From an uncultured Acidobacteriota bacterium (GTDB lineage: Bacteria; Acidobacteriota; Thermoanaerobaculia; Multivoradales; SZUA-115): 64,000 nt of DNA. Made by a program: the position numbers and the translations under genes. Within the stretch, counting starts at the first letter, position 1. Each line of letters begins with the position of its first letter. The DNA lies in assembly GCA_963805975.1 (NCBI GenBank), contig CAWDVR010000002.1, forward strand, positions 1,125,955-1,189,954, read 5' to 3'. Shown piece after piece: positions 2,306 through 50,941 of this stretch. Below the pieces are notes generated by a model that worked only from the letters and a program-made list of their open reading frames with translations, had not been told where the DNA came from and did no database searches.

Positions 2306-3479
2306 CGCGCTCGACGATCATGGCCGTGGCCTCGCCACCGCCCAGGCAGATGGCGGCACAGCCGCGGGAGAGGCCGCGCTCCGCCAGGCTCGAGAGCAGG
2401 GTGACGAGGATGCGGGCGCCCGAGGAGCCGATGGGATGGCCCAGCGCCACCGCGCCACCGCGCACGTTGACCGCCTCGGGCGAGAGCCCCAGCTCGCGGA
2501 TGAAGGCCAGGGCGACCACGGCGAAGGCCTCGTTGACCTCCCAGAGGTCGATGTCGGAGAGCCCGAGGCCGGCGCGCTCCACCACGTTCTTCACCGCCTG
2601 GATGGGCGCGGTGGTGAACCACTCCGGCGCCTGCGCCGCGGTGGCGTGGGCCACGATGCGGGCGAGCGGCTTGACGCCCAGCGCGCGGGCGCGGGAGGCG
2701 GTGGTGAGCACCAGCGCCGCGGCGCCGTCGTTGAGCTTGCTGGCGTTGGCGGCGGTGATGGTGCCGCCCTCCTCGAAGGCCGGCTTGAGGGTCGCCATGC
2801 GCTCGAGGTCGGCCCGGAAAGGCTCCTCGTCGCGGTCGACCACCGCCGGATCGCCCTTGCGCCTGGGGATCGTCACGGGAACGATCTCCTGCGTGAAGAG
2901 CCCCGCCTCGGTGGCCTCGCGGGCCCGGCGGTAGCTCTCGCGCGAGTAGGCGTCCTGCTCCTCGCGGCTGATCCCCAGCTCGCGCGCACAGAGCTCGCCG
3001 CAGACCCCCATGTGGACGTCGCCGTACGGGTCCCACAGGCCGTCGTGGATCATCGAGTCGATGAGCTTGCCGTGCCCCAGCCGGTAGCCGTCGCGCAGGC
3101 TGGGAGCGAGGTACGGGGCATTGCTCATGCTCTCCATGCCACCGGCGGCCACGATGCCGTAGTCGCCGCAGCGCAGCTCGTTGGCGGCGGTCATCACCGC
3201 CTTCATGCCCGAGCCGCAGACCTTGTTGATGGTGACGGCGCCGGTCGAGGGTGGGCAGCCGGCGGCGAGCGCCGCCTGCCGGGCCGGCGCCTGGCCCTGG
3301 CCGGCCGGCAGCACGCAACCCATGTAGACCTGATCGATGTCGCCCGGCGCGAGGCCGGCGCGGGAAATGGCACCGGCCAACGCCTGCGCCCCGAGCTTGG
3401 GCGCCGGCAGGCTCGCCAGGGCTCCCTGAAAGGAGCCGATGGGCGTGCGGGCAGCGCTCAGGATGACGATCTCTTCCAT
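2295..3479 (-). CDS. acetyl-CoA C-acetyltransferase (thiolase II)
   Basis: 394 aa. Thiolase hallmarks are present: NKVCGSGMKAV (active-site Cys), GGMESMS, and the C-terminal GHPIGSSGARI and CLGGGEATAM motifs. Confidence 0.9.
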   Translation of the reverse strand: MEEIVILSAARTPIGSFQGALASLPAPKLGAQALAGAISRAGLAPGDIDQVYMGCVLPAGQGQAPARQAALAAGCPPSTGAVTINKVCGSGMKAVMTAANELRCGDYGIVAAGGMESMSNAPYLAPSLRDGYRLGHGKLIDSMIHDGLWDPYGDVHMGVCGELCARELGISREEQDAYSRESYRRAREATEAGLFTQEIVPVTIPRRKGDPAVVDRDEEPFRADLERMATLKPAFEEGGTITAANASKLNDGAAALVLTTASRARALGVKPLARIVAHATAAQAPEWFTTAPIQAVKNVVERAGLGLSDIDLWEVNEAFAVVALAFIRELGLSPEAVNVRGGAVALGHPIGSSGARILVTLLSSLAERGLSRGCAAICLGGGEATAMIVERDAG

Positions 3480-3587
3480 GGTGGATTTGCTTTCCGGAAC
3501 GACGAAAAAGAACGACCGATGCTAGCACAGGGCCACCGGCCGGCCGGCCGGCTCCGGGGACCTGCGGGCGGCGGTTAGAATCCCCTC

Positions 3588-4004
3588 GTGCGAGCTTTGG
3601 GCATCGACTTCGGTGAGCGGCGGATCGGTCTCGCGATCTCGGACCCGCGAGGTTCCATGGCGCTGCCGCTCGTCACTTTCGAGCGCCGCGACGACCGCCG
3701 CGCGGCGCGCCGCATCGCCGCCATCGCGCGCCAGGAGGAAGTCGAGTGCCTGGTGCTCGGCGAGCCGCGCAACCTCGATGGCTCGCGCGGCGAGGCGGCG
3801 GAGCGCGTGGCCCGTTTCGGCCAGCGCCTGCGGGAGGCCACGGGCCTGCCCCTCGAGTGGGTGGACGAGGCGCTGACCTCGGTCGAGGCCCGCGCGCGGC
3901 TGCGCGAGGCGGGTGCGCGGCCGGCCGAGATCGCCGAGCACATCGACGCCGTGGCCGCGCAGATCCTCCTCCAACAGGCCCTGGACCGCAGGTCTCCCTC
4001 ATGA
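3588..4004 (+). CDS. ruvX: Holliday-junction resolvase-like protein RuvX/YqgF
   Basis: 138 aa with a GTG start. The N-terminus LGIDFGERRIGLAISD is typical of YqgF. The gene pairs with mltG as in many bacteria. Confidence 0.8.
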   Translation: MRALGIDFGERRIGLAISDPRGSMALPLVTFERRDDRRAARRIAAIARQEEVECLVLGEPRNLDGSRGEAAERVARFGQRLREATGLPLEWVDEALTSVEARARLREAGARPAEIAEHIDAVAAQILLQQALDRRSPS

Positions 4005-4052
4005 CAGGGCGCAGGTCTCCCTCATGACAGGGCGCAGGTCTCCCGCATGACC
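3988..4052. repeat. 23-bp tandem repeat (gcaggtctccctcatgacagggc), ~2.8 copies, spanning the ruvX stop and the mltG start
   Basis: Direct reading shows copies at 3988-4010 and 4011-4033, and a partial variant at 4034-4052 (ccctc changed to cccgc). Each copy carries an ATGA stop/start overlap motif. Confidence 0.8.
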
Positions 4053-5135
4053 GCCAAGAAGACGAAACCGCGCCGGGCCGAGAGGGGCTGCGGCTGCGCC
4101 ACCGTCAAGCTCGCCCTGCTCTTCCTGCTGGTGGCGGGCGCCGGCGGCTATTGGGTGTGGCAGTCGCTCGGCCGGCCCTACCAGGGCTTCGCGGGCGAGT
4201 CGACCCGACTGACCATCGAGCCGGGCACCCCGGCGGTCGCCATCCTCGAGCAGCTCGAGAGGGGCGGCGTGCTTCCCAACGCCTTCCTCGCCCGCGGCTA
4301 TCTCGTCTACTGGCTGGGCGATCCGCCCCTCCAGGCCGGCCAGTACGAGTTCGTGGCGCCCTCGAGCCCGCGGCAGGTGCTCGCCAAGCTGGTCGCGGGC
4401 GACGTGGTGCGGGCGAGCGTGACCGTGGTCGAGGGGCTGACCCTGGTCGAGACCGCCGAGCACCTGGCGCGCGAGGGCTTCGGCAGCCGCGAGGCCCTGC
4501 TCGCCGCCATGCGCTCGCCGCAGCCGATCTCCGATCTCGACCCGGAGGCCCTGGACCTCGAGGGCTATCTCTTCCCGGACACCTACAGCCTGGCGGAGGG
4601 CATGCCGCCGCGCGCGGTGGTCGCCGCCATGGTGGCGAACTTCCGCACCCGGTACCGGGAGGAGATCGCGCCTGGGCTGCCGGCCCAGGGGGGCCTGACG
4701 CTCCGCCGGCTGGTGACGCTCGCCTCGATCGTCGAAAAGGAGGCGCAGCGGCCGGAGGAACGGCCGCTGATCGCCGCCGTCTACCGCAACCGGCTGCGCG
4801 ATGGGATCGGTCTCTACGCCGACCCGACGGTGATCTACGCGCTGAAGCGCCTCGAGCGCTGGAACGGCAACCTGACGCGGGCCGACCTGGCGCTCGACTC
4901 GCCCTACAACACCTACCGCTACGGCGGCCTGCCGCCCGGACCGATCGCCTCGCCCGGCCTCGCGAGCCTCGCCGCGGCGGCCAACCCGGCCCCCGCCACC
5001 TACCTCTACTTCGTCAGCCGGAACGACGGCTCCCACGTCTTCGCGGACACGCTCGCCGAGCACAACCGCAACGTCGACCGCTGGCAGCGGCAGTACTGGC
5101 GCGAGCGCTGGGCGGCCGAGGGCCGAGGGCGGTAG
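4047..5135 (+). CDS. mltG: endolytic murein transglycosylase MltG (YceG family)
   Basis: 362 aa with an N-terminal TM helix. The YceG core (LTLRRLVTLASIVEKEA, YNTYRYGGLPPGPIASPG, YLYFVS) is present. Confidence 0.9.
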   Translation: MTAKKTKPRRAERGCGCATVKLALLFLLVAGAGGYWVWQSLGRPYQGFAGESTRLTIEPGTPAVAILEQLERGGVLPNAFLARGYLVYWLGDPPLQAGQYEFVAPSSPRQVLAKLVAGDVVRASVTVVEGLTLVETAEHLAREGFGSREALLAAMRSPQPISDLDPEALDLEGYLFPDTYSLAEGMPPRAVVAAMVANFRTRYREEIAPGLPAQGGLTLRRLVTLASIVEKEAQRPEERPLIAAVYRNRLRDGIGLYADPTVIYALKRLERWNGNLTRADLALDSPYNTYRYGGLPPGPIASPGLASLAAAANPAPATYLYFVSRNDGSHVFADTLAEHNRNVDRWQRQYWRERWAAEGRGR

Positions 5136-5255
5136 CCCCTCACCCCGACCCTCTCCCCGCTCACGCGGGGCGAGGGCGCCACCACCCGCCGGAGCGAAAG
5201 CCTTTCCTCTCCGGTTCCCTCGCCCCGCTTGCGGGGAGAGGGCCAGGGTGAGGGG
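5136..5255. repeat. REP/MITE-like nested palindromic element, full copy
   Basis: Left arm cccctcaccccgaccctctccccgc-tcac-gcggggcgaggg, ~45-bp spacer, then right arm ccctcgccccgc-ttgc-ggggagagggccagggtgagggg, which is the near reverse complement of the left arm. Each arm also holds an internal hairpin. Starts immediately after the mltG stop. Confidence 0.7.
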
Positions 5256-5374
5256 TGCTGCTGACAGGGCACTCCTGCTGATATAACAAGGCGACATTCG
5301 AGACGACGACGGCACGAGCCGCGTTCCTCCGGGCGAGGAACGCCGGCCGCGCCGCCGTCTCCGAGGGAGGCCCA

Positions 5375-7354
5375 ATGAACGCTCGTGATGTGACCGGCCG
5401 GGAAGAGTTTGGCAGCTACACCTTGCTCAAGAAGCTCGCCGAGGACCCCCTGGGCGAGACCTTCCGCGCCGGGAGGATCGGCGCCAAGGGCATGGAGCAG
5501 GTGGTGCTCCTGCGTGTTTTCAACGGCCCGAGCGTCGAGCCCGACGCCCTCTGGCGCCAGCTCGCGAACCGTGGCGCCGTGCAGGAAGCGCTCAAGAGCC
5601 CGAACGTCGGCAGCGGCGTCGAGCTGGGACGGGTGCGCAACGTGCCGTTCGTCGCCTACGACTACATCTCCGGCAAGAGCCTGGCCTCGCTCCTGGCCCA
5701 GATCAGCCACGAGCGCTCGCCGCTGCCCACCGACCACGCCCTGCTGATCGCCGAGCGCATCGCGCTCGGGCTCTCGGTGGGCTACGAGACCAAGGTGCAG
5801 GAGCAGCGCATCCTGCACGGCTTCCTGGTGCCCCCGCTGCTGATGCTCGGCAACGAGGGCGACATGCGGGTGCTCGGCTTCGAGGCCGCGCCCGGCCTGC
5901 GCGAGGTGGTGAAGACCGGCTCCCTCGCGCCCGAGGTCGCGCGCTTCCTCGCTCCCGAAACCCTGTCCGGGGCCCCCCTCCACCGCGCCGACGACGTCTA
6001 CTCGCTGGGCTCGATCCTCTTCGAGCTGCTGACCGGCCAGCCGCTGCCGAGCGGCGCGGGCGCGCGCGGTGTCGACGGCGCGCGGCTCGCCGGCGAGGGC
6101 ACGCCCATCCCCGCCGAGATCGCCAACCTGATCAAGCGCAGCCTCGCCCCGCAGGCCGAGCGCATCCCCGACGTGGTGACCTGGCACCGCCTGCTGTCGA
6201 AGCTGATGATCGACAGCCAGTACAGCGCCACCACCTTCAATCTCGCCTTCTTCATGCACAACCTCTTCCGCGACGAGATCGACCGCGAGAGCAAGGAGAT
6301 CGAGAAGGAGAAGACGCTGGCGCTGCCGCGGCGCGAAGTGCTGGCCGCCGCCGCGGCGGCCGGCCACGGCCAGTCGGCGACGGTGGAGATGAGGCCGGGC
6401 GCGCCGAGCCCGGCGTTCGGCGCCCACGACGCCGACGCGCGCGACTCCGCGGCCAAGGGCGGCAACATGGCGCTCTGGGGAGGGCTCGCGGCGCTGGTGC
6501 TGATCGGCGGCGGCGCGGGCATCTACTTCGGCCTGATCCGGGACTCGAAGCCTGCCGCCCAGACCGAAACGTCGCCCGTACAGGACACCGCGGCGCCGGT
6601 CTCGACCGAGGAGACGGCGCCGGCGACAGGGGAGCCCACAGCCGACGCCACGGTGACGGCCCAGGCCCCCGACGCACAGTCGGACCTCAACGCCCAGCTC
6701 GAGAAGCTCCTCGCCGAGCGCATGGCGGCGATGGAGAAATCCGTCCGCGCCCAGTACGACGAGAAGATCCGCGGCCTGCAGCAGTCGATCGATCAGTCGC
6801 AGCGGGCCTCGGCGGAACGGCCCGCCGGCGCCACCGAGGCCGGCAAACCACCGGCAGGGGCCGTCGAGCCGGCGCCGGCGACTTCCGGTGCCGCGAACCC
6901 GGACGGCGCGGCGAGCGCCCCGGCGGGAGGGCCTGCGGTGGCCGACACCACGAGCGCCGACACCGTTCCCGAGCCGGCGCCCGCCGCCGCGGACTCGGTA
7001 CCCGCCCCCTCGCCGACCACCGCCGCCGAGCCGCAGCGCCGCCAGGTGCGGGTGGGCGATCTCGTCGAGGCCGGCCCCGGGGTGATCGCGCCCCGCATCA
7101 AGAACATGCCCAACCCGGTCTACCCGCCCGCCGCCAGGCGGCTCAACAAATCCTCGGTGGTGCCGGTCCGGGTGCGCGCGCTGGTGGACGAAAACGGCCG
7201 TGTGACCCGGGCCGAGCTGGGCGGGCCGGACCCCGGATTCGGATTCGGGGACGCGGCGCTCGCCGCCGCGCGCTCCGCCCGCTTCGAACCCGCCACCCTG
7301 CAAGGGGTGCGGGTCAAGATGTGGAAGCCGTTCACGGTGGAGTTCAAACCGTAG
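5375..7354 (+). CDS. pseudokinase (degenerate Ser/Thr kinase-like domain)-TM-Pro/Ala-rich linker-TonB C-terminal domain fusion protein
   Basis: 659 aa with a GGAGGG RBS. The N-terminal domain keeps the kinase-like APE and DVYSLGSILFELLTG motifs, but the VAIK Lys, the HRD Asp (ILHGFL) and DFG (LGF) are lost. A TM helix follows (ALWGGLAALVLIGGGAGIYFGLI), then a coiled-coil and P/A-rich region. The C-terminus has a TonB_C signature (NPVYPPAARRLNKSSVVPVRVRALVDENGRVTRAEL...RFEPATLQGVRV). Confidence 0.65.
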   Translation: MNARDVTGREEFGSYTLLKKLAEDPLGETFRAGRIGAKGMEQVVLLRVFNGPSVEPDALWRQLANRGAVQEALKSPNVGSGVELGRVRNVPFVAYDYISGKSLASLLAQISHERSPLPTDHALLIAERIALGLSVGYETKVQEQRILHGFLVPPLLMLGNEGDMRVLGFEAAPGLREVVKTGSLAPEVARFLAPETLSGAPLHRADDVYSLGSILFELLTGQPLPSGAGARGVDGARLAGEGTPIPAEIANLIKRSLAPQAERIPDVVTWHRLLSKLMIDSQYSATTFNLAFFMHNLFRDEIDRESKEIEKEKTLALPRREVLAAAAAAGHGQSATVEMRPGAPSPAFGAHDADARDSAAKGGNMALWGGLAALVLIGGGAGIYFGLIRDSKPAAQTETSPVQDTAAPVSTEETAPATGEPTADATVTAQAPDAQSDLNAQLEKLLAERMAAMEKSVRAQYDEKIRGLQQSIDQSQRASAERPAGATEAGKPPAGAVEPAPATSGAANPDGAASAPAGGPAVADTTSADTVPEPAPAAADSVPAPSPTTAAEPQRRQVRVGDLVEAGPGVIAPRIKNMPNPVYPPAARRLNKSSVVPVRVRALVDENGRVTRAELGGPDPGFGFGDAALAAARSARFEPATLQGVRVKMWKPFTVEFKP

Positions 7355-7448
7355 GGTAGAGCCAGAAACGGCATGCGCTGAGCATCCGCGCTCTGAACGC
7401 CAGAGGACCGTGGCCAACTCCGGCGGCGTCCCGTGGGAGGAGAACAGA

Positions 7449-8471
7449 ATGAGACCCGAATTCACGCGCGCGTTGTTAGTACTCTTGGTATCGAGCTTCG
7501 CATCTGCCAACTCATACGCCGTTTGCGACTACGGCCCAGACACCTGCCTGTTCGGATTCGTGTGGCGGGAAGCGTTCCCTGGTGATCACGTTTGCGTAAC
7601 AGGCGCTACTCGCGATCAGGCAAGGAGTGACAACAACCTGGCTGACCAGAGAAGATCGCCGACAGGCGGAGACACATGCTTACCCGGATTCGTGTGGCGG
7701 GAAGCGTCGCCTACCGATCATGTCTGCGTGCTCGGAAGCACGCGCACGGAGGCGGCTTCAGATAATGCTCAGGCAGGCGCCCGAAGAGATCCGCAATGCG
7801 CCGATCCATCGCTAAGCGACAGTTCGGCGCCCAGTTTCATCGAGAACACGATTACCTTTGTACGTGTCTCGGACAATCTTCAGGTCGGGTCAGAAGTCAT
7901 ACCGCCTGCCGGATTGACAAAATCATCAGTGGCCCGAGATCGACGATTTGTAGTAGCAGCTTCTGCGGGCGACAACGAGAGCGGCATCGCCAGCATACGC
8001 CTGCAAGGTGGAATAGGCTGGAACTGCACACCGCGCCTCGAGGGCGTGGGCACCAATCAACAAGGGTCGCTGGGCGCGCCGTCTGATGAAGAAAAAGATA
8101 ACACCAGCACACCGGGAAATCCGCTGCTGCGAAGCGCTCATTTCACCATCGATCCTTTTGAGGGCAATCCCTTGCGCCTGGTTTGCCCATGCACCAACGA
8201 TTCCGGGCCGCTCACGGTCAGCATCACGTTGGCTGCACGCAACGGGAAGGGACTGGAAACAACTTCTCCACCAATTACGGTGGAGTACTCCCCCCAATTA
8301 CCGACCTGCGGTGTTGCGTCGGGTGCAATTTGTGGCAACAATGTGCTCGGCCAGGTCCTGACTTGCACAGACGGCCGGAGCTGCGACTTCAAAAGGTCTA
8401 CGGTTTGCTCGGGATGGTGGATATTCAGAACCTGCGACAAAATTCAGACAACAGACATGTTCTGTCCGTAG
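7449..8471 (+). CDS. secreted cysteine-rich hypothetical protein with an internal tandem ~45-aa repeat; low-GC gene
   Basis: GGAGGA RBS before the ATG at 7449; the track ORF starts at a GTG at 7410. Signal peptide MRPEFTRALLVLLVSSFASANSYA. Two copies of TCL(F/P)GFVWREA(F/S)P(G/T)DHVCV..TR...SDN. About 18 Cys. Local GC is ~55% against ~70% in the flanks. No family recognised. Confidence 0.5.
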   Translation: MRPEFTRALLVLLVSSFASANSYAVCDYGPDTCLFGFVWREAFPGDHVCVTGATRDQARSDNNLADQRRSPTGGDTCLPGFVWREASPTDHVCVLGSTRTEAASDNAQAGARRDPQCADPSLSDSSAPSFIENTITFVRVSDNLQVGSEVIPPAGLTKSSVARDRRFVVAASAGDNESGIASIRLQGGIGWNCTPRLEGVGTNQQGSLGAPSDEEKDNTSTPGNPLLRSAHFTIDPFEGNPLRLVCPCTNDSGPLTVSITLAARNGKGLETTSPPITVEYSPQLPTCGVASGAICGNNVLGQVLTCTDGRSCDFKRSTVCSGWWIFRTCDKIQTTDMFCP

Positions 8472-8546
8472 GTACTGCTCGAGACCGCCGCGAACGGCGG
8501 AATCGGCCGCTACAGGCGTCCTCTCAGAGTCTCCGGTCACACTCTG

Positions 8547-8589
8547 GCCCCTCTCCCCGCGTGGGCGGGGAGAGGGCTGGGGTGAGGGG
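8547..8589. repeat. REP/MITE-like element, half copy (one arm)
   Basis: gcccctctccccgc-gtgg-gcggggagagggctggggtgagggg, lying between the convergent gene ends at 8471 and 8596. Confidence 0.6.
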
Positions 8590-8595
8590 TCTGTC

Positions 8596-9222
8596 CTACA
8601 GGTCGGCGGCCTTGATGCTGGCCACCAACTGCTGCACCACCGGCTTCATCACCTTGTCGAACTGGCGCTCGTCGCCCTGCACACCGCCGCCGAAGCCGCC
8701 CACCGAGAGCTTGAAGGCCGTGTCCTCGCCGCGCGCCTCGTCCGCCCACAGGATCTCGCCGGTGGTGGTGTCGATGATGCGCGCGTTGGCCGCGGCGACG
8801 AAGGTCTTCTTGCCGCCCGAGAAGCCCGGCAGCCCGCGCACGCCCGGCCCGTGAGCGCCGGTCTCGGTGGCGCCGTACTCGGTGACCGCGCCGGTCAGGA
8901 AGTACTGCACGCCGATGAGCTTGCCGGCCTTGATGGCGGTCTTGGGATCGACGTCGCCGGACAGCGAGAGGTTCTTCTCGGCCAGCAGGGCATCGAGCTG
9001 CTCGCGGTCCATGACCCGGAACTTGCCGCTCTTGACCAGCTCGGTGACGAACACGTCCTGCATCGCAGCGGAGCCGCCGTGCCACCAGTACTGGCCATCC
9101 GCCTTGTTCTTGAACTCCAGAACGGCGATGCGGGGCTTGCCGTCGCTGGCCGCCGTGGCCAGGGGGACGACCGCCAGCGCGACCAGCGCGGCAACGATCA
9201 GCAGGGAAAGCACCTTCTTCAT
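8596..9222 (-). CDS. CsgG/LpoB-fold family periplasmic protein (short form)
   Basis: 208 aa from the ATG at 9220-9222, with an AGGAGG-like RBS. Signal peptide MKKVLSLLIVAALVALAVVPLATAAS. IAVLEFKNKADGQ...VFVTELVKSGKFRVMDREQLDALLAE...GVQYFLTGAVTEYG aligns with the CsgG N-terminal region. The upstream part of track ORF 8596..10662 is rejected. Confidence 0.55.
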   Translation of the reverse strand: MKKVLSLLIVAALVALAVVPLATAASDGKPRIAVLEFKNKADGQYWWHGGSAAMQDVFVTELVKSGKFRVMDREQLDALLAEKNLSLSGDVDPKTAIKAGKLIGVQYFLTGAVTEYGATETGAHGPGVRGLPGFSGGKKTFVAAANARIIDTTTGEILWADEARGEDTAFKLSVGGFGGGVQGDERQFDKVMKPVVQQLVASIKAADL

Positions 9223-9444
9223 GGCTTGAAACCTCCTGTTGGCACCCATCATGGGGTGTTCGTACTGTGCTCGGAAAGCGCGCGCTCGGCGCCGTCCCGG
9301 CTCTTCGTCGAATCGCTCATGGAACGCGCTACAGCTTACTCCAACTCCTGGCCGGCCGCGAGACAGCCGGCTCAACGCGACCGGCATTTGCGATAGCCTC
9401 TCGCGGTCCGCCGCCCGACTCCGACCGCGAACCCGAGCGCCCTC

Positions 9445-14703: not shown

Positions 14704-14784
<81 letters not shown>

Positions 14785-14910
14785 TCACAAGGAGCGTCGC
14801 CGCTCCTCGAAGAACGGGAAGTATCCCAAAACTTGCCGGCGCTGTCAAAGTCCGGGCAGGGCCTGCGCGCCGCGGGCTCCGTCGAGGTGGCTGTACAATT
14901 CGCCGACAGG

Positions 14911-15543
14911 ATGCCTCCCCTGCCGCCCAACCAGAAGCGCGAGGAAGAAGCACAAAAGATCCTGGCGGCGCTGCGGGAGGGCTCGCTCAGCTTGGACCTC
15001 GCTTTCGATCGCCTCTTTCGCTCGCACTACGCCGCCGTCCGTTGGCTCTTCCGCCAGTGGCTTACCAGCCCGGAGGATCGTGAGGAGCTAACCCAGGAGA
15101 CTTTTCTCCGCATCTATCTGAGCATCGAGGCGTTTCGCGGAGATTGCAGCTTCAGCACGTACCTCTTCAAGCTCGCCAAGAACGTGTTCCTCGGGCACCG
15201 GCGGAGCAAGCTCGCCGAGAAACGCAGCGGCATCGAGGTTTCTCTCACGGGGAGCCCGGAGACCGGGGAGGAGCCGAGCACGGAGCCGCTCCCTCCCGTG
15301 CCGCCGGAGCAAGAGGATGCTGTGCTCCGAACGGAGCAGGAGAAAAAGTTGCTCGAGGTAGTGGGACAGATGCCGGATCAAAGACGCAAGTGCCTGATTT
15401 TGAAGTACTACCAGGATCGCAGCGTGCAGGAGATCGCGGCGCTGCTCCACCTCGCCGAGGGCACGGTGAAGGCGCACTTGCACCAGGGGCGAGAGCAGCT
15501 CCGAACACTTCTGGGGGCGGACGCGCTGACGGAACGGACCTAG
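14911..15543 (+). CDS. ECF (group 4) RNA polymerase sigma factor
   Basis: 210 aa from the ATG at 14911; the track start at TTG 14833 is less likely. Region 2 reads DREELTQETFLRIYLSIEAFRG. Region 4 reads RSVQEIAALLHLAEGTVKAHLHQGREQLR. Confidence 0.85.
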   Translation: MPPLPPNQKREEEAQKILAALREGSLSLDLAFDRLFRSHYAAVRWLFRQWLTSPEDREELTQETFLRIYLSIEAFRGDCSFSTYLFKLAKNVFLGHRRSKLAEKRSGIEVSLTGSPETGEEPSTEPLPPVPPEQEDAVLRTEQEKKLLEVVGQMPDQRRKCLILKYYQDRSVQEIAALLHLAEGTVKAHLHQGREQLRTLLGADALTERT

Positions 15544-15581
15544 ACCTTCGGGGGCGGGGGTTTCAGGAAAGCAGGTGGAAG

Positions 15582-16367
15582 ATGGCTCAGACACTGAAGA
15601 TCAAGACCCTGCTCGAGGGCCTGGCTCGCGAGCAGGGCGAGCCGGCGGCCGGCCATCCCAGCGACGAGGAGCTCGTCGAGTACGAGGCCGGCGAGCTGGA
15701 CCCGGAGGACTACCGGCGCGTTCAGGACCACTTGGTGGCCTGCGAGCCGTGCGCCCGTCTGGTGCTCGAGATCTCGCTCCTCGAGCCCAAAGCGCTCGAC
15801 GGCGAAGACCCGGTTTCCGAGCACGAGCTGGCGCAGTCGCTGCGCAGGATGCGAACCCGGCTCCCGGCGCAGCCGCCGCTCCGGGTGGTGGCGCAGCCGG
15901 TCAGGCCGGGCGGGACCCCCAACTGGTACAGAGCCGTGGCGGCAGGCCTTTCGGTGGCCGTGCTCGGGCTCGCGGGCTGGGTGGGGCTGCTGCTCTCCCA
16001 CCGCGGCGGCCCGGAGATCAACGCCTACGTCTGGAACCTGAACGACACCGGCACGCGGGGAGGCTTCGAAGAGGCCGATCTCGTGGAGGTGCCGGCCGGC
16101 AGCAACGCCGTGACGCTGTTGCTCTACGCCTCGAAGCTCGGCGAGCAGGGCACGCCGGAGTACGACGGCTTTCGCGTCGAGATCGCCGGCGCCGGCCGTA
16201 CCTGGAGCCGCGACGGCCTGCTGGTGGTGGGTTCGGGCTCGTTCTCCCTCACTCTGCCGAAGGACGATTTCCCAGCCGGCGCCTACAACGTGAGGATCCT
16301 GGGTACGCGCCAGGGCCAGCAGGAGGCGGCCCTGGCGACCTACACGATCGATCTGCGCTACGCCTGA
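15582..16367 (+). CDS. membrane-anchored anti-sigma factor with a ZAS-type zinc-binding motif
   Basis: 261 aa with an AGGTGG RBS. HLVACEPC (HxxxCxxC) sits about 45 aa from the N-terminus. A single TM helix (VAAGLSVAVLGLAGWVGLLL) precedes a ~110-aa beta-rich extracytoplasmic domain. It lies 38 bp after the sigma-factor gene. Confidence 0.7.
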   Translation: MAQTLKIKTLLEGLAREQGEPAAGHPSDEELVEYEAGELDPEDYRRVQDHLVACEPCARLVLEISLLEPKALDGEDPVSEHELAQSLRRMRTRLPAQPPLRVVAQPVRPGGTPNWYRAVAAGLSVAVLGLAGWVGLLLSHRGGPEINAYVWNLNDTGTRGGFEEADLVEVPAGSNAVTLLLYASKLGEQGTPEYDGFRVEIAGAGRTWSRDGLLVVGSGSFSLTLPKDDFPAGAYNVRILGTRQGQQEAALATYTIDLRYA

Positions 16368-16384
16368 GGTAGGCTCCGGCCGAG

Positions 16385-19300
16385 ATGCCTCGGTCCTCCA
16401 GCCGAGCGGCGATCGTCTTCCTGATTACGGCTCTGCTCGCCTTTCTCGCCGGCTACGAGAGAGCTCGACTTCCACCCGCCACTCGCCAAGGCCTGCTGAC
16501 CGCAACGCCGGCACCGGAACCAAGGCCCGCGGCGCGCTCCCTCCCGCTCGTCGCCGGCACCGAGATCCCGGCCATCCTGGCCGGCGGCGAGGCCCACGAG
16601 TACAGCCTTTCACTGCGAGAAGGCCAGTTCGTGGACCTCGAGGTCGAGCAGCAGGGCATCGACGTGATCCTCGAGCTCTACCAGCCCGGCGGCGACCTCG
16701 AGACCCTCGTGGACAGCCCGAACGATGCCTCGGGACCGGAGCCCCTGCTGCTGCTGGGCGAGGCGGCGGGCGAGTACCGTCTTTCGATTGCAGCAGGAAA
16801 CCCGGCAGATCCATCCGGCCGATACATCCTACGTCTCCTCGCCGTGCACGAGGCCGGGGCCGACGACCGCACCCGGGTCACCGCGGAGCGCATGTTCGCC
16901 AAGGGCGAAGGGCTGCGGCGCGCAGGAACCGCCGAATCCCTGACCGAGGCGATCGATTGGGACCGGCAGGCTCTCCTTCGGTACCGCAGCCTGGAGAGTC
17001 GTTCGCGAGAGGCGGATGTTCTCGTTGCGTTGGGAAGGGTCCACTCATTTCGCGATGACTGGCAGCAGGCACTCTCGGCATTCGAGCAGGCCCTTCCCAT
17101 ACTGCGAGAGGCCGGGCGAGGCGTGGACGAGGCGGCAACGCTGAACAACATTGGCCTGGTCCTCAACAAAACAGAGCAATCCCAACGGGCGCTCGACCTT
17201 TTCAGGCAGGCAGAAGCTCTATACCGGCGGTTTGGACACCCCCACCAAGCCCGCGCCCTGAGCAACATCGGCTGGGCTCACGAGAAGCTCGGCGACCTCG
17301 AGGACGCTATTCAGGCTTACCGCGATGCCTATACACAATTTCTCAGGTTGAGCGACTCGCCTGGCGCTGGAATCTGCATGCTCAACATCGGGGATCTTTA
17401 CTCCAGACAGGGTCAGACTGAGAGTGCGATCGATGCTTATGAAGAAGCTCGCGCTCGGCTCGAGAAGTCTCCGGACCGGCGATCACTTGCGCTGACCCAG
17501 ACGAGGCTCGGGTACGCACGCTACCGGTCCGGCCAGGCCGAACAGGGCCGAGAGCTCCTGGAGACCGCCCTGGAGATGCAGCGACGCCTGGGTGCACGAA
17601 GAGACGAAGCGATCTCTCACAACTCTCTGGCTCTCCTCCTGAGTGAGGCAGCCGAGACCGAGCTCGCCAAGCTCCACTATCACGAGGCTGCAGCCATCGG
17701 CACGGCGCTGGGCGACGAAGCAGAGCGCGCTGTGACTCTCGCCAACCTGGGGCATCTCGAGCTCGAGAGCGGCTCCGACGAAGCGGCCGAGGGCACATTC
17801 CGAGAGGCGCTGGCGACTTTTGCCCGGGTCGATTCACCCCTGGGCGAGGCCACCGCTCTCTTTGGGCTGGGGACGCTTCTCGCTCAGCAAGGCAAGCTGA
17901 GCGAGGCCGCATCGGTGCTCGAGCGGTGTACTCGCAGAGTCGAGGACGTGCGCAACGCGACGGCGAGCTCGGATCTGCGAAGGTCATTCCTGGCGCTCCA
18001 GCAGCCAACCTACGGGTTGTACATCGAAACCCTCATGAGGCTCCACGCGGCAGATGTGGACGCCGGGTTTGACCTGATGGCCTTCGAGGTCGCCCAACGT
18101 GTACGAGCGCGTGGCCTGCTCGACGACCTGCTGGCGTCCCCTGCGGCGCTGCGGAGAGACGGCCCCCACCCTCTGGTCGAGGAAGAAGCAGCCCTCAGCC
18201 AAGCAATCAACAGAACAGCAGAGGAACGTCAGCCCCTGCTCGCCATCCCTCGATCTCGACAGAAGGTCGACGACCTCGGCAAAGTACTGAGAGGGCAGCT
18301 CGCGGCTGCTGATCATCTGGAAGCAAGGATGCGGAGAAGCAGCACGGCCTTCCGCGAAACCATCTCGGCACCGGCTCAGACACTCGAAACGATCCAGCAA
18401 CAGCTTCTCGGCGCGGAAACCATCCTCTTGGAGTACGCTCTCGGCAACAACGAGAGCTACCTGTGGGCAGTGACTGACAGCTCGTTGTCGAGCTTCCGGC
18501 TGCCGCCGCGCCGAGAGCTCGAGGCGCAGGCAGCGGCACTGTACCGCGCGCTCTCGCTCGGGCCGCAGCCACTCGCTTCGGGTCAGACCGAGGCCTTGCT
18601 GAAAAAACTTTCAGAGACTCTCCTGGGGCCGGTGGCAGAGCTCGTTGGTGATCGGCGGATTCTGGTAATTCCCGATGGGGACCTTGCACTGCTCCCGTTT
18701 GCCGCCCTCCCCAGACCGAGCACAGCCGCCAAGGCTCATCAGAAAGCGGACTCGGAGCCGATCGCCACCGGGCACGAGGTGACGATACTGCCGTCCGCGT
18801 CGTCCCTCGCCTTCTTGCGGCGCAGATCTCGGGCGCGCTCCTCCGCCCCGGGGCTCCTGGCAGCGATCGGAGATGCGGTTTCCAACCCCGGAGACCTGCG
18901 GTTTCCCAGGCGACCTCCCGTCCCCCCCGGCTCACAGCTCATCCAGTTCCCGCGGTTGCCTTATGCACGAGCAGAGATGGAGCGAATTCTATCTCTCGCG
19001 GGTGAGGAGCCGAAGCTCGCGGCGTCAGGATTCGAAGCCAGCAGAAGCACGCTCATGACCGAGGTCCTGTCCAGATATCGAATCGTTCACTTCGCCACTC
19101 ACGGTGTCTTTGACCCCGAGTTCCCCGAGCTGTCGGCGATCGTACTGTCGACCTTCGATGCCAGCGGATCTCCCCGAGATGGTCTGGTTCGAGCCCATGA
19201 GCTGCGACGGATGAATTTCAACGCAGAGCTAGTCGTGGTCTCCGCCTGCGAGACCGCACGCGGGAAGACGGTGCGCGGAGAAGGAGTTGTGGGTCTGGCT

Positions 19301-19573
19301 CGCAGCCTGCTCTCCGCCGGGGCCCAACAAGCAATGGTCAGCCTCTGGGAGGTCGACGACCAGGCGACGGCAAACTTGATGGAAGAGTTCTACCGCGGCT
19401 TGCTGGTCGAGCGCCGTAGCGCTGCTGCAGCGCTGCTGGAAGCGCAGGCAGCCGTCGCCCGCCAGGAGCGGTGGCACTCTCCGTACTTCTGGGCCGGATT
19501 CCTATTGATTGGCGACGGGAGTGGTCTCGGCGCTAAACCGCACATTCCCCCGTCGCATCTGAGACGGAATTAG
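16385..19573 (+). CDS. TPR-repeat / CHAT-domain (caspase-fold, clan CD) protein with an N-terminal membrane anchor
   Basis: 1062 aa. The N-terminus IVFLITALLAFLAGY is hydrophobic, followed by a PPC-like domain. Multiple TPR-like repeats carry ALxNIG(L/W) cores. The C-terminal CHAT domain has a His/Cys dyad (IVHFATHGVFD ... LVVVSACETARG). Confidence 0.85.
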   Translation: MPRSSSRAAIVFLITALLAFLAGYERARLPPATRQGLLTATPAPEPRPAARSLPLVAGTEIPAILAGGEAHEYSLSLREGQFVDLEVEQQGIDVILELYQPGGDLETLVDSPNDASGPEPLLLLGEAAGEYRLSIAAGNPADPSGRYILRLLAVHEAGADDRTRVTAERMFAKGEGLRRAGTAESLTEAIDWDRQALLRYRSLESRSREADVLVALGRVHSFRDDWQQALSAFEQALPILREAGRGVDEAATLNNIGLVLNKTEQSQRALDLFRQAEALYRRFGHPHQARALSNIGWAHEKLGDLEDAIQAYRDAYTQFLRLSDSPGAGICMLNIGDLYSRQGQTESAIDAYEEARARLEKSPDRRSLALTQTRLGYARYRSGQAEQGRELLETALEMQRRLGARRDEAISHNSLALLLSEAAETELAKLHYHEAAAIGTALGDEAERAVTLANLGHLELESGSDEAAEGTFREALATFARVDSPLGEATALFGLGTLLAQQGKLSEAASVLERCTRRVEDVRNATASSDLRRSFLALQQPTYGLYIETLMRLHAADVDAGFDLMAFEVAQRVRARGLLDDLLASPAALRRDGPHPLVEEEAALSQAINRTAEERQPLLAIPRSRQKVDDLGKVLRGQLAAADHLEARMRRSSTAFRETISAPAQTLETIQQQLLGAETILLEYALGNNESYLWAVTDSSLSSFRLPPRRELEAQAAALYRALSLGPQPLASGQTEALLKKLSETLLGPVAELVGDRRILVIPDGDLALLPFAALPRPSTAAKAHQKADSEPIATGHEVTILPSASSLAFLRRRSRARSSAPGLLAAIGDAVSNPGDLRFPRRPPVPPGSQLIQFPRLPYARAEMERILSLAGEEPKLAASGFEASRSTLMTEVLSRYRIVHFATHGVFDPEFPELSAIVLSTFDASGSPRDGLVRAHELRRMNFNAELVVVSACETARGKTVRGEGVVGLARSLLSAGAQQAMVSLWEVDDQATANLMEEFYRGLLVERRSAAAALLEAQAAVARQERWHSPYFWAGFLLIGDGSGLGAKPHIPPSHLRRN

Positions 19574-19608
19574 CACCATCTATTCCTTCTGCTCGCAAAG
19601 GAGAGGCG

Positions 19609-19860
19609 ATGAGAACCAGTTCGCATCCGAAAGAAACTGATCAGGGGACGGCGGAGAAATCTACCAGCGTGACCAGGGTGGACCCGGGCTTTCCTATCGA
19701 GCAGGGAGCTGGGGGCCAGGGGTCGGGTGGCGGCACTCCGGCCAAGCCACCCAATCAATCGGACGGCGAACCCGGTTCGGTCAGCCCCAAGAAGCGCGTC
19801 CGAAAGATCAGGCGAGGAGCGGTCCCGAAGAAGGCCAGCCCGACCCGAAGATCGGCATAA
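19609..19860 (+). CDS. small low-complexity basic protein (hypothetical)
   Basis: 83 aa. An AAGGAGAG RBS lies 5 nt before the ATG. The sequence is Gly/Ser-rich with a basic tail (KKRVRKIRRGAVPKKASPTRRSA). It sits between two caspase-fold genes and no family is recognised. Confidence 0.35.
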   Translation: MRTSSHPKETDQGTAEKSTSVTRVDPGFPIEQGAGGQGSGGGTPAKPPNQSDGEPGSVSPKKRVRKIRRGAVPKKASPTRRSA

Positions 19861-20086
19861 CGTCGGACACCGCTTCCAAGGCTCGCGGCGCGGTCCGGCG
19901 GTCGTTTACCCGGCGCCCGCGCCGCCATTGCCATATCCTATGCCGCCAAGGCCATGACAGATCCTTGCTCGGTGTTCAACGGCATTCATGCCACGACGGG
20001 CCGCACCTTGTATCCGGCGCATCCGGTGAGGAGCCTGATTCACCTCGCAGAGCGGGAGAGGGGCTCGCCGATGCAGACCGGCCCTC

Positions 20087-34460: not shown

Positions 34461-35893
34461 AGAGCGAGCCCGAGCTCGTGGACTTAGCAGCCGGTCTCGA
34501 ACGGATCTTCGATCGGGTGCCCGAGGAAGGCTCGGGGCCGGTCGCGGGCATCGAGGGCGAGCTACCCGCGTGGCTTCGCGGCACGCTGTACCTCACGGGC
34601 CCGGCGCGCTTCCACCGCGGCGAGACGCGCTATCGCCACTGGCTCGACGGCGACGGCATGGTCTGCGCCCTCCGTTTCTCCGAAGAGGCTGGCACCTCTA
34701 GCAGCACCTTCGCCAGCCGTTTCGTGCGCAGCCACAAGTGGGTGGCCGAGGAGGGTGCCGGCCGCGCCCTCTTCCGCACCTTCGGCACGCGCTTTCCCGG
34801 CGACCAGCTCCTGCGCGGGGTGGCTCTCGCTTCGCCGGTCAACGTCTCCGTGGTGCCCTTCGCGGGCAAGCTCCTCGCGTTCGGAGAGCAGGGCCTGCCC
34901 TGGGAGCTCGACCTGACGACCCTCGAGACCCGTGGCGAGCACACCTTCGGCGGCAGGCTCAACCCTATCTCGCCGCTCTCCGCCCACCCGAAGATCGACT
35001 GCACGACGCACGAGATGCTCAACTTCGGCATCTCCTACGCGACGGCCGAGCCCACGCTGACGCTCTACCGCTTCGCCGCGGACGGCCGGCTCCTCTACCG
35101 CCGGCGACACGGCCTCGAGCTGCCCTACTCAGTGCACGACTTCAACCTGTCGCAGCGCTACGCCGTGCTCCACCTCGGCCCGTACCTCATGGACGTGGGC
35201 AGGTTCATGAAGGAAGGCGCCACCGTGATGGAGTCGCTCTCCTGGGAGCCCGAGCGCGGCAGCCGCCTCGCCGTCTTCTCGCGCGAGACCGGTGACCTCG
35301 TCTGCTCGGTGCCGGTGGGGAGCGGCTACTGCCTGCATCACGTCAACGCCTTCGAAGACGAGGACGGGCGGCTGGTGGTCGACCTCCTGGAGCTCGAAGA
35401 GCCCGTGTACAAAGACTACGAGCCTCTGCCCCAGCTCTTCGTCGATGTCCGCCCCGCGCACCCGACCCGCTTCGTCGTCGACCCCGTCACCGGCACGCTG
35501 CTCGAAACGATCCGTCTCCCCTTCACCCTGGCAGCGGACTTCCCCGTCCACGACCCGGCCCTCACCTGCCTCCCCTACCGCCAGTTCTGGATGCTCGGGA
35601 TCTCCACCACCGGGAAACCGGGGCGAAAGTTCCTCGACCGGCTGTGCCGGGGGGACTGGGAGACGGGCGAGGTAGAGACCATCTACACCCCGCCTGCCGG
35701 CAGCTTCCTCGCCGGCGAGCCGGTGTTCGTGGCGGCGCCGGACGGAAGCGAGGAGGAGGGCGTGGTGCTGGTGCCCGAGCTGAACCTCGAAACCGGCACC
35801 ACGAGGTTCCTGGTGGTGGGAAAGGACGTGGCCAGGATCGAGCTGGGGCGAGCGATCCACACCTGCTTTCATGCCGGATGGAGTTTCGGCTGA
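34457..35893 (+). CDS. carotenoid/stilbene cleavage oxygenase (RPE65/CCD family)
   Basis: 478 aa. The GTG start overlaps the halogenase stop (GTGA). The four iron-ligand His contexts are present (SAHPKID, THEML, YCLHHVNAFED, IHTCFHAGW). Confidence 0.8.
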   Translation: MKSEPELVDLAAGLERIFDRVPEEGSGPVAGIEGELPAWLRGTLYLTGPARFHRGETRYRHWLDGDGMVCALRFSEEAGTSSSTFASRFVRSHKWVAEEGAGRALFRTFGTRFPGDQLLRGVALASPVNVSVVPFAGKLLAFGEQGLPWELDLTTLETRGEHTFGGRLNPISPLSAHPKIDCTTHEMLNFGISYATAEPTLTLYRFAADGRLLYRRRHGLELPYSVHDFNLSQRYAVLHLGPYLMDVGRFMKEGATVMESLSWEPERGSRLAVFSRETGDLVCSVPVGSGYCLHHVNAFEDEDGRLVVDLLELEEPVYKDYEPLPQLFVDVRPAHPTRFVVDPVTGTLLETIRLPFTLAADFPVHDPALTCLPYRQFWMLGISTTGKPGRKFLDRLCRGDWETGEVETIYTPPAGSFLAGEPVFVAAPDGSEEEGVVLVPELNLETGTTRFLVVGKDVARIELGRAIHTCFHAGWSFG

Positions 35894-36149
35894 TGGTTTC
35901 CCCCGCCGGTTCGCCTTCCAGGCAGATTCACCGCCGATTCGCCCGCTTCCTCGGAGATCGAAGTTCGCTGACAAGGCCGGCACTTTCTTTCCGCCTCTGA
36001 TCGGAACTTGGCGGCCGAGGAGTGGGAGCGAGGTAATTTTTCGCCTCCCCCGGTTAGAGATTCTGACGCAAGCGCCTCGGGCAGAAAGACTTACCCTTGC
36101 CTCTGCCCCACGCCGCACCTACATTCCTGGCGTGCGAAGCCTGGATCCG

Positions 36150-36554
36150 ATGCGGATGGCGCTGCGGCTGCTGCGCGAGCGTCGGGGCTGGAATCAGCAG
36201 GAGCTGGCGGACAGAGCCGGCAGCACCAAGAGCAAGATCTCCACTTACGAAACCGGTACGACGGAGCCCACCCTCACCACTCTCGACGGGTTGCTGCTGA
36301 CGCTCGGGTCCAGCTGGCTCGAACTCTCTCTCCTCGCCCAGATGCTCGAACCGGCCGTCGCCTCTCTCGCAAGCAGAGGCGAGGGCTCGCCCGCGATGGC
36401 CAGTGTGCCGCCTGCCAGCACGCCGGTGGTCGGGGCGCTGCGCCTCAACCTCGCAGCGGCGGGAGACTGGTTGAGGCCCTGGAGCAGAACCTCCTCGCCC
36501 CTCCCTCAACCACCTCCGAGGTGCCAGCCGACTCGTAACGGCACTCCGGTGTAG
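36150..36554 (+). CDS. XRE-family helix-turn-helix transcriptional regulator (paralogue 1; C-terminal region apparently frameshifted)
   Basis: The HTH is QQELADRAGSTKSKISTYETG. The conserved N-terminal region extends upstream, with a possible GTG start at 36132. After ~36460, similarity to paralogue 2 continues in another frame (GRLVEALEQNLLAPP versus KLIAALEQSVVELPP). Confidence 0.55.
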   Translation: MRMALRLLRERRGWNQQELADRAGSTKSKISTYETGTTEPTLTTLDGLLLTLGSSWLELSLLAQMLEPAVASLASRGEGSPAMASVPPASTPVVGALRLNLAAAGDWLRPWSRTSSPLPQPPPRCQPTRNGTPV

Positions 36555-36651
36555 CTTCCAATCGAAGCGGTGGGCACCCCTCCTCGTGGAGGCTCAGCTT
36601 TCCGAAGCAATCGAGGCCAGGATCGATTGGTGATGGTACATTGCTCGCTCG

Positions 36652-37143
36652 ATGAAGGGCGAGATCGAGCGAGTCCTCGGAGCTCTGAACAGAGCCGAGG
36701 TCCGCTACTTGGTCGTGGGTGGCGTGGCTGTCGTGCTTCATGGCTATCTTCGCACCACCAGGGACCTGGATCTGGTCGTCCAACTGGGAACGGAGAACCT
36801 CAAGAAGGCCCTCGAGGCCCTGAAGAACCTCGGCTTCGAGCCCGCCGTGCCGGTTCCGATCGAAGCCTTCGCGAATCCGGTAGCGCGGGACTCGTGGATT
36901 CGAGACAAGAACCTATTGGTCTTCTCGCTCTGGCATCCGCAGAGACCTGGATTCCAGGTCGACCTTTTCGCGGAGGAGCCGTTTGACTTTGAAGAGACCT
37001 ATTCTCGCGCCCTCCGGGTTCCGCTCGACAGCACCACGGCGATGGTTGTCTCGGCACATGACCTCATCGCTCTGAAGCGCCGAGCGGGCCGGCCCCAGGA
37101 TCTCGCCGATATCGACGCGCTGGAAGAACTGGAGGAGGAATAG
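36652..37143 (+). CDS. minimal nucleotidyltransferase-fold protein (pol-beta superfamily, MNT/DUF6036-like)
   Basis: 163 aa. YLVVGGVAVVLHGYLRTTRDLDLVV is a GG/hG...DxD NTase-like core. GC is lower (~58%). Confidence 0.5.
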   Translation: MKGEIERVLGALNRAEVRYLVVGGVAVVLHGYLRTTRDLDLVVQLGTENLKKALEALKNLGFEPAVPVPIEAFANPVARDSWIRDKNLLVFSLWHPQRPGFQVDLFAEEPFDFEETYSRALRVPLDSTTAMVVSAHDLIALKRRAGRPQDLADIDALEELEEE

Positions 37144-37149
37144 CCGCCC

Positions 37150-37383
37150 ATGCTCGAGGAGAAGAACGCACGCACCGAGTCAGAGTGCCAGCCCGAACCC
37201 TGGAGCTTCGAGGCCAACCGCAAGAGGCAGCTTCGGACAGGCCTTCGGCTGACGCCTGCCGAGAGACTACGGTGGCTGGAGGAGACTGTAGAGGAGCTTC
37301 TTCCCTGGGTGGGTCGGGCACGGCCGGGGCCGTCGGTGGACCTCGGCCAGCAGGGGCCGGACGATGTACACCGACCAGCGTAG
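37150..37383 (+). CDS. small hypothetical protein adjacent to the NTase gene
   Basis: 77 aa. It starts 4 bp after the NTase stop. It contains LTPAERLRWLEETVEEL; no family is recognised and it may be spurious. Confidence 0.3.
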   Translation: MLEEKNARTESECQPEPWSFEANRKRQLRTGLRLTPAERLRWLEETVEELLPWVGRARPGPSVDLGQQGPDDVHRPA

Positions 37384-37479
37384 CGTCAAGCCGCGATATC
37401 TGACACTTCTACCAACCTGTCTCGTGTGGCGGCCTCCAAGGTCGAGGAACAGGATCGGTCGGGATAACATCCCGGCCCC

Positions 37480-49930: not shown

Positions 49931-49936
49931 CGGCCC

Positions 49937-50923: not shown

Positions 50924-50941
50924 GACCCTTCGAGACCCGCC

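Follow-up and report, generated by a model that had tools for sequence, protein, structure and literature searches.

We analysed a 64,000-nucleotide stretch of DNA (hereafter the window) from an uncultured bacterium of the Acidobacteriota (Thermoanaerobaculia, Multivoradales, SZUA-115; GenBank assembly GCA_963805975.1, contig CAWDVR010000002.1, positions 1,125,955 to 1,189,954), in which a plus-strand gene at 5375-7354 encodes a membrane protein of 659 amino acids that joins a cytoplasmic pseudokinase domain, through one transmembrane helix, to a periplasmic TonB_C domain. The local gene order is lptD (-), thiolase (-), ruvX (+), mltG (+), the pseudokinase–TonB_C gene, a 1.2-kb lineage-specific insert and a gene for a CsgG-like protein (-), beyond which lie tryptophan dioxygenase, kynureninase and further genes. 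The pseudokinase–TonB_C gene is a genuine coding gene: a single frame of 659 codons runs from an ATG at 5375 to a stop codon at 7352-7354, a Shine–Dalgarno-like sequence read from the DNA (GAGGGAGG, 5363-5370, +) ends 4 nt 5′ of the start, and GC content by codon position is 0.73/0.52/0.94 (third-position GC, GC3, 0.935), as is usual for true genes in a window of ~70% GC. By the same codon-position profile, an antisense open reading frame (ORF) at 5006-7510 (834 aa) was set aside as a shadow ORF.

The N-terminal domain (residues 10-283; 5402-6223, +) has the complete fold of a Hanks-type kinase and a catalytic site that alignment predicts to be dead. The Pfam Pkinase profile (PF00069) matches residues 74-225 at 31.1 bits (cut-off 31.7), with relatives scoring 29-35 bits; phmmer against the PDB recovers StkP, PknB, Stk1 and PknA at E values of 1e-9 to 1e-6, residues 12-304 being aligned with StkP; and Foldseek comparison of the AlphaFold2 model returns PknA/PknB at E ~3e-11 with probability 1.0, many other kinases likewise having probability 1.0. 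A match to the NCBIfam MADS6 defence kinase (64.5 bits, cut-off 460) reflects generic kinase likeness and was dropped as a lead. We read the active site from the StkP alignment, 26 close homologues and 120 family representatives. The G-loop reads EDPLGETFRAG and has no GxGxxG, the beta3 strand (VVLLRV) has L46/R47 at the position of the Lys, with R47 as its replacement, HRDLKPQN of StkP has become HGFLVPPL (H148-G149-F150 for HRD, L155 for the catalytic Asn) and DFG has become G168-F169-E170. Kept are APE (P194, E195), the alphaF motif DDVYSLG and the alphaH-I Arg, R263. The dead pattern is family-wide among the 120 representatives, in which the replaced motifs are themselves conserved (R31 in 116, H148 in 117, G149 in 113 and G168 in 114), as are the retained kinase positions (P194 in 117, E195 in 116 and R263 in 118). 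The full-length AlphaFold2 model is mediocre (mean predicted local distance difference test score, pLDDT, 58.6), with an N-lobe at pLDDT ~35-60, so ATP or ligand binding could not be judged from structure and neither could the packing of a helix predicted at residues 287-313.

Conservation across the protein is highest in the segment that holds this helix, a juxta-kinase helix at residues 284-313 (6224-6313, +; SATTFNLAFFMHNLFRDEIDRESKEIEKEK, also given as TTFNLAFFMHNLFRDEIERE) with a hydrophobic first half and a charged second half. Mean pairwise identity is 87% over this segment, 70% over the pseudokinase, 65% over TonB_C and 25-32% over the linkers; T286-H295 and L297-R299 are invariant in 26/26 sequences, and F288, L290 and A291 recur in 119, 115 and 114 of the 120 representatives. 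Such constraint on a non-catalytic cleft together with an extra helix argues for a binding or switching function rather than decay.

From this helix a variable, Ala-rich cytoplasmic linker (residues 314-363; 6314-6463, +; 32% mean pairwise identity; predicted disordered, with pLDDT <50) leads to the transmembrane helix (residues 364-388; 6464-6538, +), a Gly/Ala-rich stretch, GGLAALVLIGGGAG, free of His and of an SHLS motif, that contains the only hydrophobic segment of the protein (365-388; Kyte–Doolittle maximum 1.97) and in which G370, A372 and A373 are invariant among the 26 close homologues. The periplasmic portion opens with an acidic, disordered spacer rich in Ala, Thr and Pro (residues 389-434; 6539-6676, +) and continues as a long helix or coiled coil (residues 435-478; 6677-6808, +; pLDDT 95-97), which a separate model of residues 431-659 (m3444167fdc57) renders as a 49-residue helix (model positions 2-50, given as 435-478) and which carries a conserved YD(D/E)(K/R)I..LQ motif, with E454 and Q469 invariant in the close homologues. 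A second, disordered Pro/Ala-rich spacer follows (residues 479-559; 6809-7051, +; 29% Ala, 19% Pro, pLDDT ~40). The Pro/Ala-rich spacers are long enough to cross the periplasm, and because a Gly/Ala-rich transmembrane helix is combined with a coiled coil, the protein is probably a parallel dimer.

At the C-terminus, residues 560-659 (7052-7351, +) form a true TonB_C domain, extended at its N-terminal end by a conserved stretch. Residues 579-659 match PF03544 at 41.2 bits (cut-off 24.6) and TIGR01352 at 40.7 bits (cut-off 27.1), and the region carries the motifs VGDLV..G.GV and YP..A (Y583, P584, A587) and a C-terminal VKMW strand. Residues 560-659 are modelled with pLDDT >90, and the modelled domain superimposes on solved TonB C-terminal domains (9dc4_T, 6i97_D, 1u07, 2gsk_B) with TM-scores of 0.70-0.77 and root mean square deviations of 2.2-2.8 Å, as against a poorer fit to TolA domain III (TM-score 0.27-0.46). 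Searched alone against the PDB with phmmer, the C-terminal 119 aa gave no match, the TonB likeness being recovered there by fold comparison only. Together these data bear out the layout proposed by the first-pass annotation of this DNA, which had described a kinase-like domain keeping APE and a DxWSxG-like motif and missing the beta3 Lys, the HRD Asp and DFG, followed by one transmembrane helix, a coiled coil, a Pro/Ala/Thr-rich spacer and a C-terminal TonB_C domain. Of the two profile matches it had proposed as a check, TonB_C clears its threshold and Pkinase falls just short.

The protein belongs to a large family. A search of 5.8 billion proteins returned 943 homologues and the identical protein P0001; the matches listed are mostly full-length at 46-80% identity, and those among them named by NCBI are labelled Thermoanaerobaculia, usually as ‘TonB family protein’. 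HMMER over 1.84 billion cluster representatives found 312 clusters (50% identity) at E≤1e-30, with full-length alignments down to ~30% identity. With each GTDB species represented by a single genome, a scan placed a relative in 304 species genomes; the 80 listed of these 304 represent 80 different assemblies, labelled Thermoanaerobaculia, ‘Holophagales’ or Acidobacteriota metagenome-assembled genomes, plus one labelled Deltaproteobacteria.

Within this diversity, three paralogues of 982-1087 aa (P0250, P0260 and P0264) align over the whole query and have intact VAIK, HRD..N and DFG motifs, with Pkinase scores of 133-140 bits. All three share the tail of transmembrane helix, coiled coil and TonB_C, with VGDLV and GVRVKMW motifs, and bear an N-terminal extension of ~340-430 residues ahead of the kinase domain; in P0264 the extension is Pro/Ala-rich, and its start looks receiver-domain-like by eye, with EQE for the acidic pocket. 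A further protein, P0224, is intermediate, having kept the beta3 Lys and lost HRD and DFG (Pkinase 94 bits). Given active paralogues with the same tail and an intermediate between them and the dead forms, the pseudokinase family is probably a catalytically dead offshoot of active receptor kinases built as kinase, transmembrane helix, coiled coil and TonB_C. The gene for P0264 (locus L086, 8001-11219) adjoins ruvC and yebC, not mltG, and comes from the same metagenome sample as one pseudokinase family member (L004).

The genes upstream of the pseudokinase–TonB_C gene are ruvX, encoding a YqgF-type resolvase-like nuclease (3588-4004, +; Pfam RuvX 137.5 bits), and mltG, encoding the endolytic transglycosylase also named YceG (4047-5135, +; Pfam YceG 268 bits, TIGR00247 204.7 bits), here with a cytoplasmic tail of ~20 aa, one transmembrane helix and a periplasmic YceG domain. 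Using tblastn of the window proteins against fetched related loci, and counting over loci with enough flank, we found mltG directly upstream on the same strand in 72/78 loci and ruvX upstream of the orthologue in 71/78; the distance from mltG stop to orthologue start is 35-353 bp in 72/75 loci, with a median of 137 bp. The corresponding gap in the window is 239 bp and holds an inverted pair of GC-rich palindromes (CCCCTCACCCCGACCCTCTCCCCGC...GCGGGGAGAGGG, 5136-5176 and 5219-5256) that resemble repetitive extragenic palindromic (REP) elements, a pair that probably accounts for its greater width. Further upstream, a 23-nt unit (CGCAGGTCTCCCTCATGACAGGG) occurs three times in tandem at 3987-4055 (the third copy 83% identical), a run that takes in both the stop codon of ruvX (4002-4004) and the start of mltG (ATG at 4047); each copy contains an ATG, and the mltG start region is therefore duplicated.

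Much of this synteny could be the general synteny of one class, yet three observations indicate more than that: the ruvX–mltG order in distant clades, a tandem pair of paralogues behind the same two genes, and the retention of a CsgG-family neighbour where the link to ruvX–mltG is lost. Of three distant clades examined, two that share just 33-34% identity (L088 and the P0217 locus) keep the order ruvX–mltG–pseudokinase gene, with gaps of 48-55 bp, all other neighbours being different. In a low-GC organism (L085, GCA_027078415.1, 1543-5603) ruvX–mltG is followed by two tandem pseudokinase–TonB_C paralogues of 699 aa and 651 aa, in the second of which the conserved helix has diverged to SPFDLACFINNSF and KYFE stands in for DFG. 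Another distant member (L087) follows genes for a LysM protein and BamD.

On the downstream side lies a convergent gene for a secreted protein of 208 aa with the CsgG/LpoB/TolB_N fold (8596-9222, -; Pfam CsgG 104 bits), which has a signal peptide of the signal peptidase I type, no lipobox and a KPRIAVLEFKNKADGQYWW motif. A CsgG-like gene lies ≤3 kb downstream of the pseudokinase gene in 47/70 loci, convergently in 45 of these, and a CsgG-family gene is still adjacent where ruvX–mltG has been lost (L035, L084, L060). The 53 CsgG-like orthologues (~205 aa) are typically 63-91% identical to the window copy, which makes them more conserved than the pseudokinase protein; a lipobox occurs in 0/53, and they share the motif KPRIAVLEFKNKADNQWW. 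Their Gly-rich segments may correspond to the membrane hairpins of CsgG. The protein has no sequence relative in the PDB, and its LpoB score of 44 bits against an equivalog cut-off of 110.55 led us not to give it that name. We considered whether KPRIAVLEF, the mature N-terminus, might be a TonB-box-like strand; the Pfam CsgG match (from model position 4) starts close by and this segment probably belongs to the domain core, which leaves the idea as speculation only. The CsgG-like protein is nonetheless a candidate partner of the TonB_C domain.

Between the two genes lies the insert, with a plus-strand ORF at 7410-8471 for a Cys-rich protein of 353 aa with a signal peptide, a GC3 of 0.61 (~0.93 in its neighbours), a duplicated motif C..GFVWREA.P.DHVCV (DNA repeat at 7533-7597 and 7665-7729) and no match in Pfam or NCBIfam. 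The ORF is absent from an 80%-identical relative (L005), in which the CsgG-like gene directly follows the pseudokinase gene, and is thus probably a recent insertion. A third copy of the REP-like palindrome (8549-8590) lies between this ORF and the CsgG-like gene, where it may flank the inserted ORF.

Whether such a protein could transmit force from an inner-membrane motor can be weighed against what is known of TonB and TolA, in which an N-terminal transmembrane helix with an SHLS motif, including an essential His, binds ExbB or TolQ (PMC12204202) and a Pro-flanked beta-strand motif just past this helix, the D-box or motor box, binds ExbD or TolR (PMC10907165). We searched 241 family members for SHLS as S-x3-H-x6-L-x3-S and for a strict D-box within 70 aa after the transmembrane helix, with E. 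coli TonB, as a control, giving both motifs. Neither was found in any member (0/241 each); any His near the transmembrane helix was present in 6/241, and the region after the helix is variable (27% mean pairwise identity), the first periplasmic spacer of the window protein having no D-box-like strand. Within ~7-10 kb, in the window (30 ORFs scanned) and in the Pfam-annotated related loci, we saw no exbB, exbD, tolQ or tolR gene and no active kinase, FHA or PP2C gene. With an internal transmembrane helix and neither SHLS nor D-box, the protein is not classed here as a force transducer, although the TonB_C module is shared and its binding to TonB boxes is possible. Two remarks of the first-pass annotation held up, namely that no ExbB/ExbD gene is adjacent and that a CarboxypepD-type TonB receptor is encoded at 39975-43016 (CarboxypepD_reg and Plug are both present). 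Its proposal that the fusion couples Ser/Thr-kinase or FHA signalling to TonB-dependent transporters gained no support, and the conserved neighbours are ruvX–mltG and the CsgG-like gene instead of exbBD, an active kinase or FHA.

Both domains are already known, as are the fusion of a cytosolic module to a periplasmic TonB_C and the occurrence of the pair Pkinase and TonB_C in databases; our literature search found no description of a pseudokinase–TonB_C protein. The closest parallel in layout is GltJ (AgmX) of the Myxococcus xanthus Agl–Glt system, in which a 377-aa cytosolic switch (zinc ribbon, linker and GYF) is followed by one transmembrane helix and then, in the periplasm, by a flexible stretch and TonB-C, and in which the cytosolic part is a non-enzymatic switch joining cytoplasmic partners to an envelope-spanning machine (PMC11135422). 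The cytosolic region of our protein is of similar length (363 aa) and is followed by the same series of segments; unlike GltJ, it has no zinc ribbon or GYF match in Pfam or NCBIfam and has a kinase fold instead, and whereas GltJ belongs to a gliding gene set with a TolQR-like motor, the present gene stands beside ruvX–mltG and a CsgG-like gene with no motor genes seen. With TonB and TolA it shares the TonB_C fold with its YP..A motif and a periplasm-spanning Pro-rich and helical middle, and differs from them in a transmembrane helix that comes only after 363 cytoplasmic residues, as well as in the absent motor motifs and motor-gene linkage. A TonB-like protein need not serve uptake: SjdR has a role at septal peptidoglycan rather than in siderophore acquisition (PMC8262864).

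On the kinase side, the protein resembles the PASTA kinases StkP, PknB and IreK in having a cytoplasmic kinase fold, one transmembrane helix and an envelope-facing binding domain, and StkP, Stk1/PknB and PknA are the best sequence and structure matches of its cytoplasmic domain; it differs from them in an ectodomain of TonB_C in place of PASTA repeats, in a two-membrane host and in the loss of all catalytic residues. Mycobacterial MviN acts in cell-wall synthesis. It has a dead kinase domain (family ActPs3) built into a membrane protein (PMC12599244), which parallels our case except that the kinase domain here is not fused to a flippase. Closest among the described families, the GLW pseudokinases, reported as mainly proteobacterial, share with our protein the degeneration of all three catalytic motifs, a Leu-rich beta3 (LLLL/W in GLW, VVLLRV here) and a transmembrane helix after the kinase domain (PMC12599244; bioRxiv 10.1101/2025.01.12.632604); HRD is replaced by G-L-W in that family and by H-G-F in ours, a separation made by description only. 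The recent surveys of bacterial pseudokinases list seven families, and their main text mentions neither TonB nor Acidobacteriota (PMC12599244; bioRxiv 10.1101/2025.01.12.632604).

Because the gene nearly always follows mltG, we consider a link between the cell envelope and the cell interior more likely than the powering of nutrient uptake. The reading that we favour, tentatively and at a little less than an even chance, is that of a pseudokinase that serves, independently of a motor, as a receptor or scaffold across the envelope and takes part with MltG in envelope or peptidoglycan homeostasis. A single-pass inner-membrane protein would span the envelope, and its TonB_C domain would dock, through beta-strand addition, to a partner in the periplasm or the outer membrane; candidates are the CsgG/LpoB-fold neighbour, peptidoglycan and an outer-membrane protein bearing a strand like a TonB box. 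In the cytoplasm, the pseudokinase and its conserved helix would receive the signal of occupancy or tension and would work as an allosteric switch or a platform for docking, not as an enzyme. The process served would most likely be peptidoglycan and envelope homeostasis, as suggested by the operon-like link to mltG and by the regulation of MltG by PASTA kinases in Firmicutes, where IreK is linked to phosphorylation of MltG (PMC12369325).

A bolder form of this proposal, a serious possibility that we nevertheless think unlikely, would make the protein a Gram-negative, no longer catalytic counterpart of the PASTA kinases: a dimer whose TonB-fold ectodomain would sit on an outer-membrane or periplasmic partner (possibly the CsgG/LpoB-fold neighbour) and whose invariant helix and pseudo-active site would bring in factors of cell division or of the cell wall, tying MltG-dependent termination of glycan strands to the state of the outer envelope.

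Several points weigh against a motor-independent receptor acting with MltG. The MltG encoded here offers a cytoplasmic tail of only ~20 aa, so that regulation of MltG from the cytoplasm, as with StkP or IreK, does not carry over in any obvious way. Part of the adjacency to mltG may come from inheriting the common ruvX–mltG pair; the mltG and pseudokinase genes do not overlap, and a consensus scan of 3400-9400 that turned up no promoter, and terminator-like sites only as often as chance would give, does not settle co-transcription. The missing SHLS and D-box are no proof of motor independence, since proteins of the GltJ type may use other contacts, and our scan for motor genes covered the gene neighbourhoods only. 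Finally, with the N-lobe model of low confidence, a contact of R47 with a nucleotide is in principle still conceivable.

A related explanation, which we regard as doubtful, is that of a surface-signalling receptor in which TonB_C samples the TonB boxes of loaded transporters, or of another outer-membrane protein, without pulling on them, much as in FecR-like systems with a different output. A TonB-like domain able to add a beta strand, in a protein without motor motifs, fits this account, and active-kinase paralogues with the same ectodomain suggest an ancestral signalling role; it sits less easily with a presence in 304 species genomes at a housekeeping site by mltG, with no transporter, sigma or anti-sigma gene as neighbour.

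We judge it rather improbable that the protein is an energy-transducing TonB/TolA paralogue whose coupling to a motor is gated by the pseudokinase, with Ser/Thr-kinase or FHA input. The fold is indeed closest to transporter-binding TonB C-terminal domains, YP..A is kept, the Pro-rich spacer would span the periplasm and the genome encodes a TonB-dependent receptor. Set against this are the absence of SHLS and D-box from all 241 members, the lack of exbBD, tolQR, Ser/Thr-kinase, FHA and PP2C genes nearby in the window and annotated related loci, and a 364-aa cytoplasmic domain ahead of the transmembrane helix, unlike the three-domain plan of TonB and TolA (PMC12204202).

That the gene is a decaying remnant of a receptor kinase, or an artefact of assembly (a chimera, as the first-pass annotation had considered) or annotation, is scarcely credible: the loss of all catalytic residues and a Pkinase score just below threshold could suggest it, but the frame is unbroken and shows the codon bias of coding DNA, the substituted motifs and the additional helix hardly vary among aligned sequences, synteny is conserved and hundreds of full-length homologues reach down to 30% identity, which excludes a chimera, so that conservation as read from these comparisons refutes this explanation.

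The rest of the window is housekeeping. It includes mfd (43659-47165), a surA-like gene (48048-49211) and, ~42 kb from the pseudokinase–TonB_C gene, the start of the dcw (division and cell wall) cluster at 49493-53208, with mraZ, rsmH, ftsL (117 aa) and ftsI (PBP3). A tRNA-Met gene (14708-14784, -) adjoins a gene for an extracytoplasmic function (ECF) sigma factor (14833-15543), and two regions, 15500-20000 and 34500-37400, are of lower GC content (~0.64-0.66) and hold no ORF with the usual GC3 signature.

Bacterial pseudokinases are almost without experimental study. The family described here combines large size, strong constraint on a non-catalytic ‘active site’, an evolutionary series of kinases that runs, on a single scaffold, from active to dead, and a recurrent partner in mltG, which makes it a tractable case for dead-kinase signalling across a two-membrane envelope. 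It also illustrates how proteins that probably transduce no energy can be hidden under the label ‘TonB family protein’. If the counterpart to the PASTA kinases proposed above were true, no TonB_C would have been shown before in the role of sensor module for Hanks-type (pseudo)kinase signalling, and bacterial pseudokinases would gain a new conserved family with a defined cellular process.

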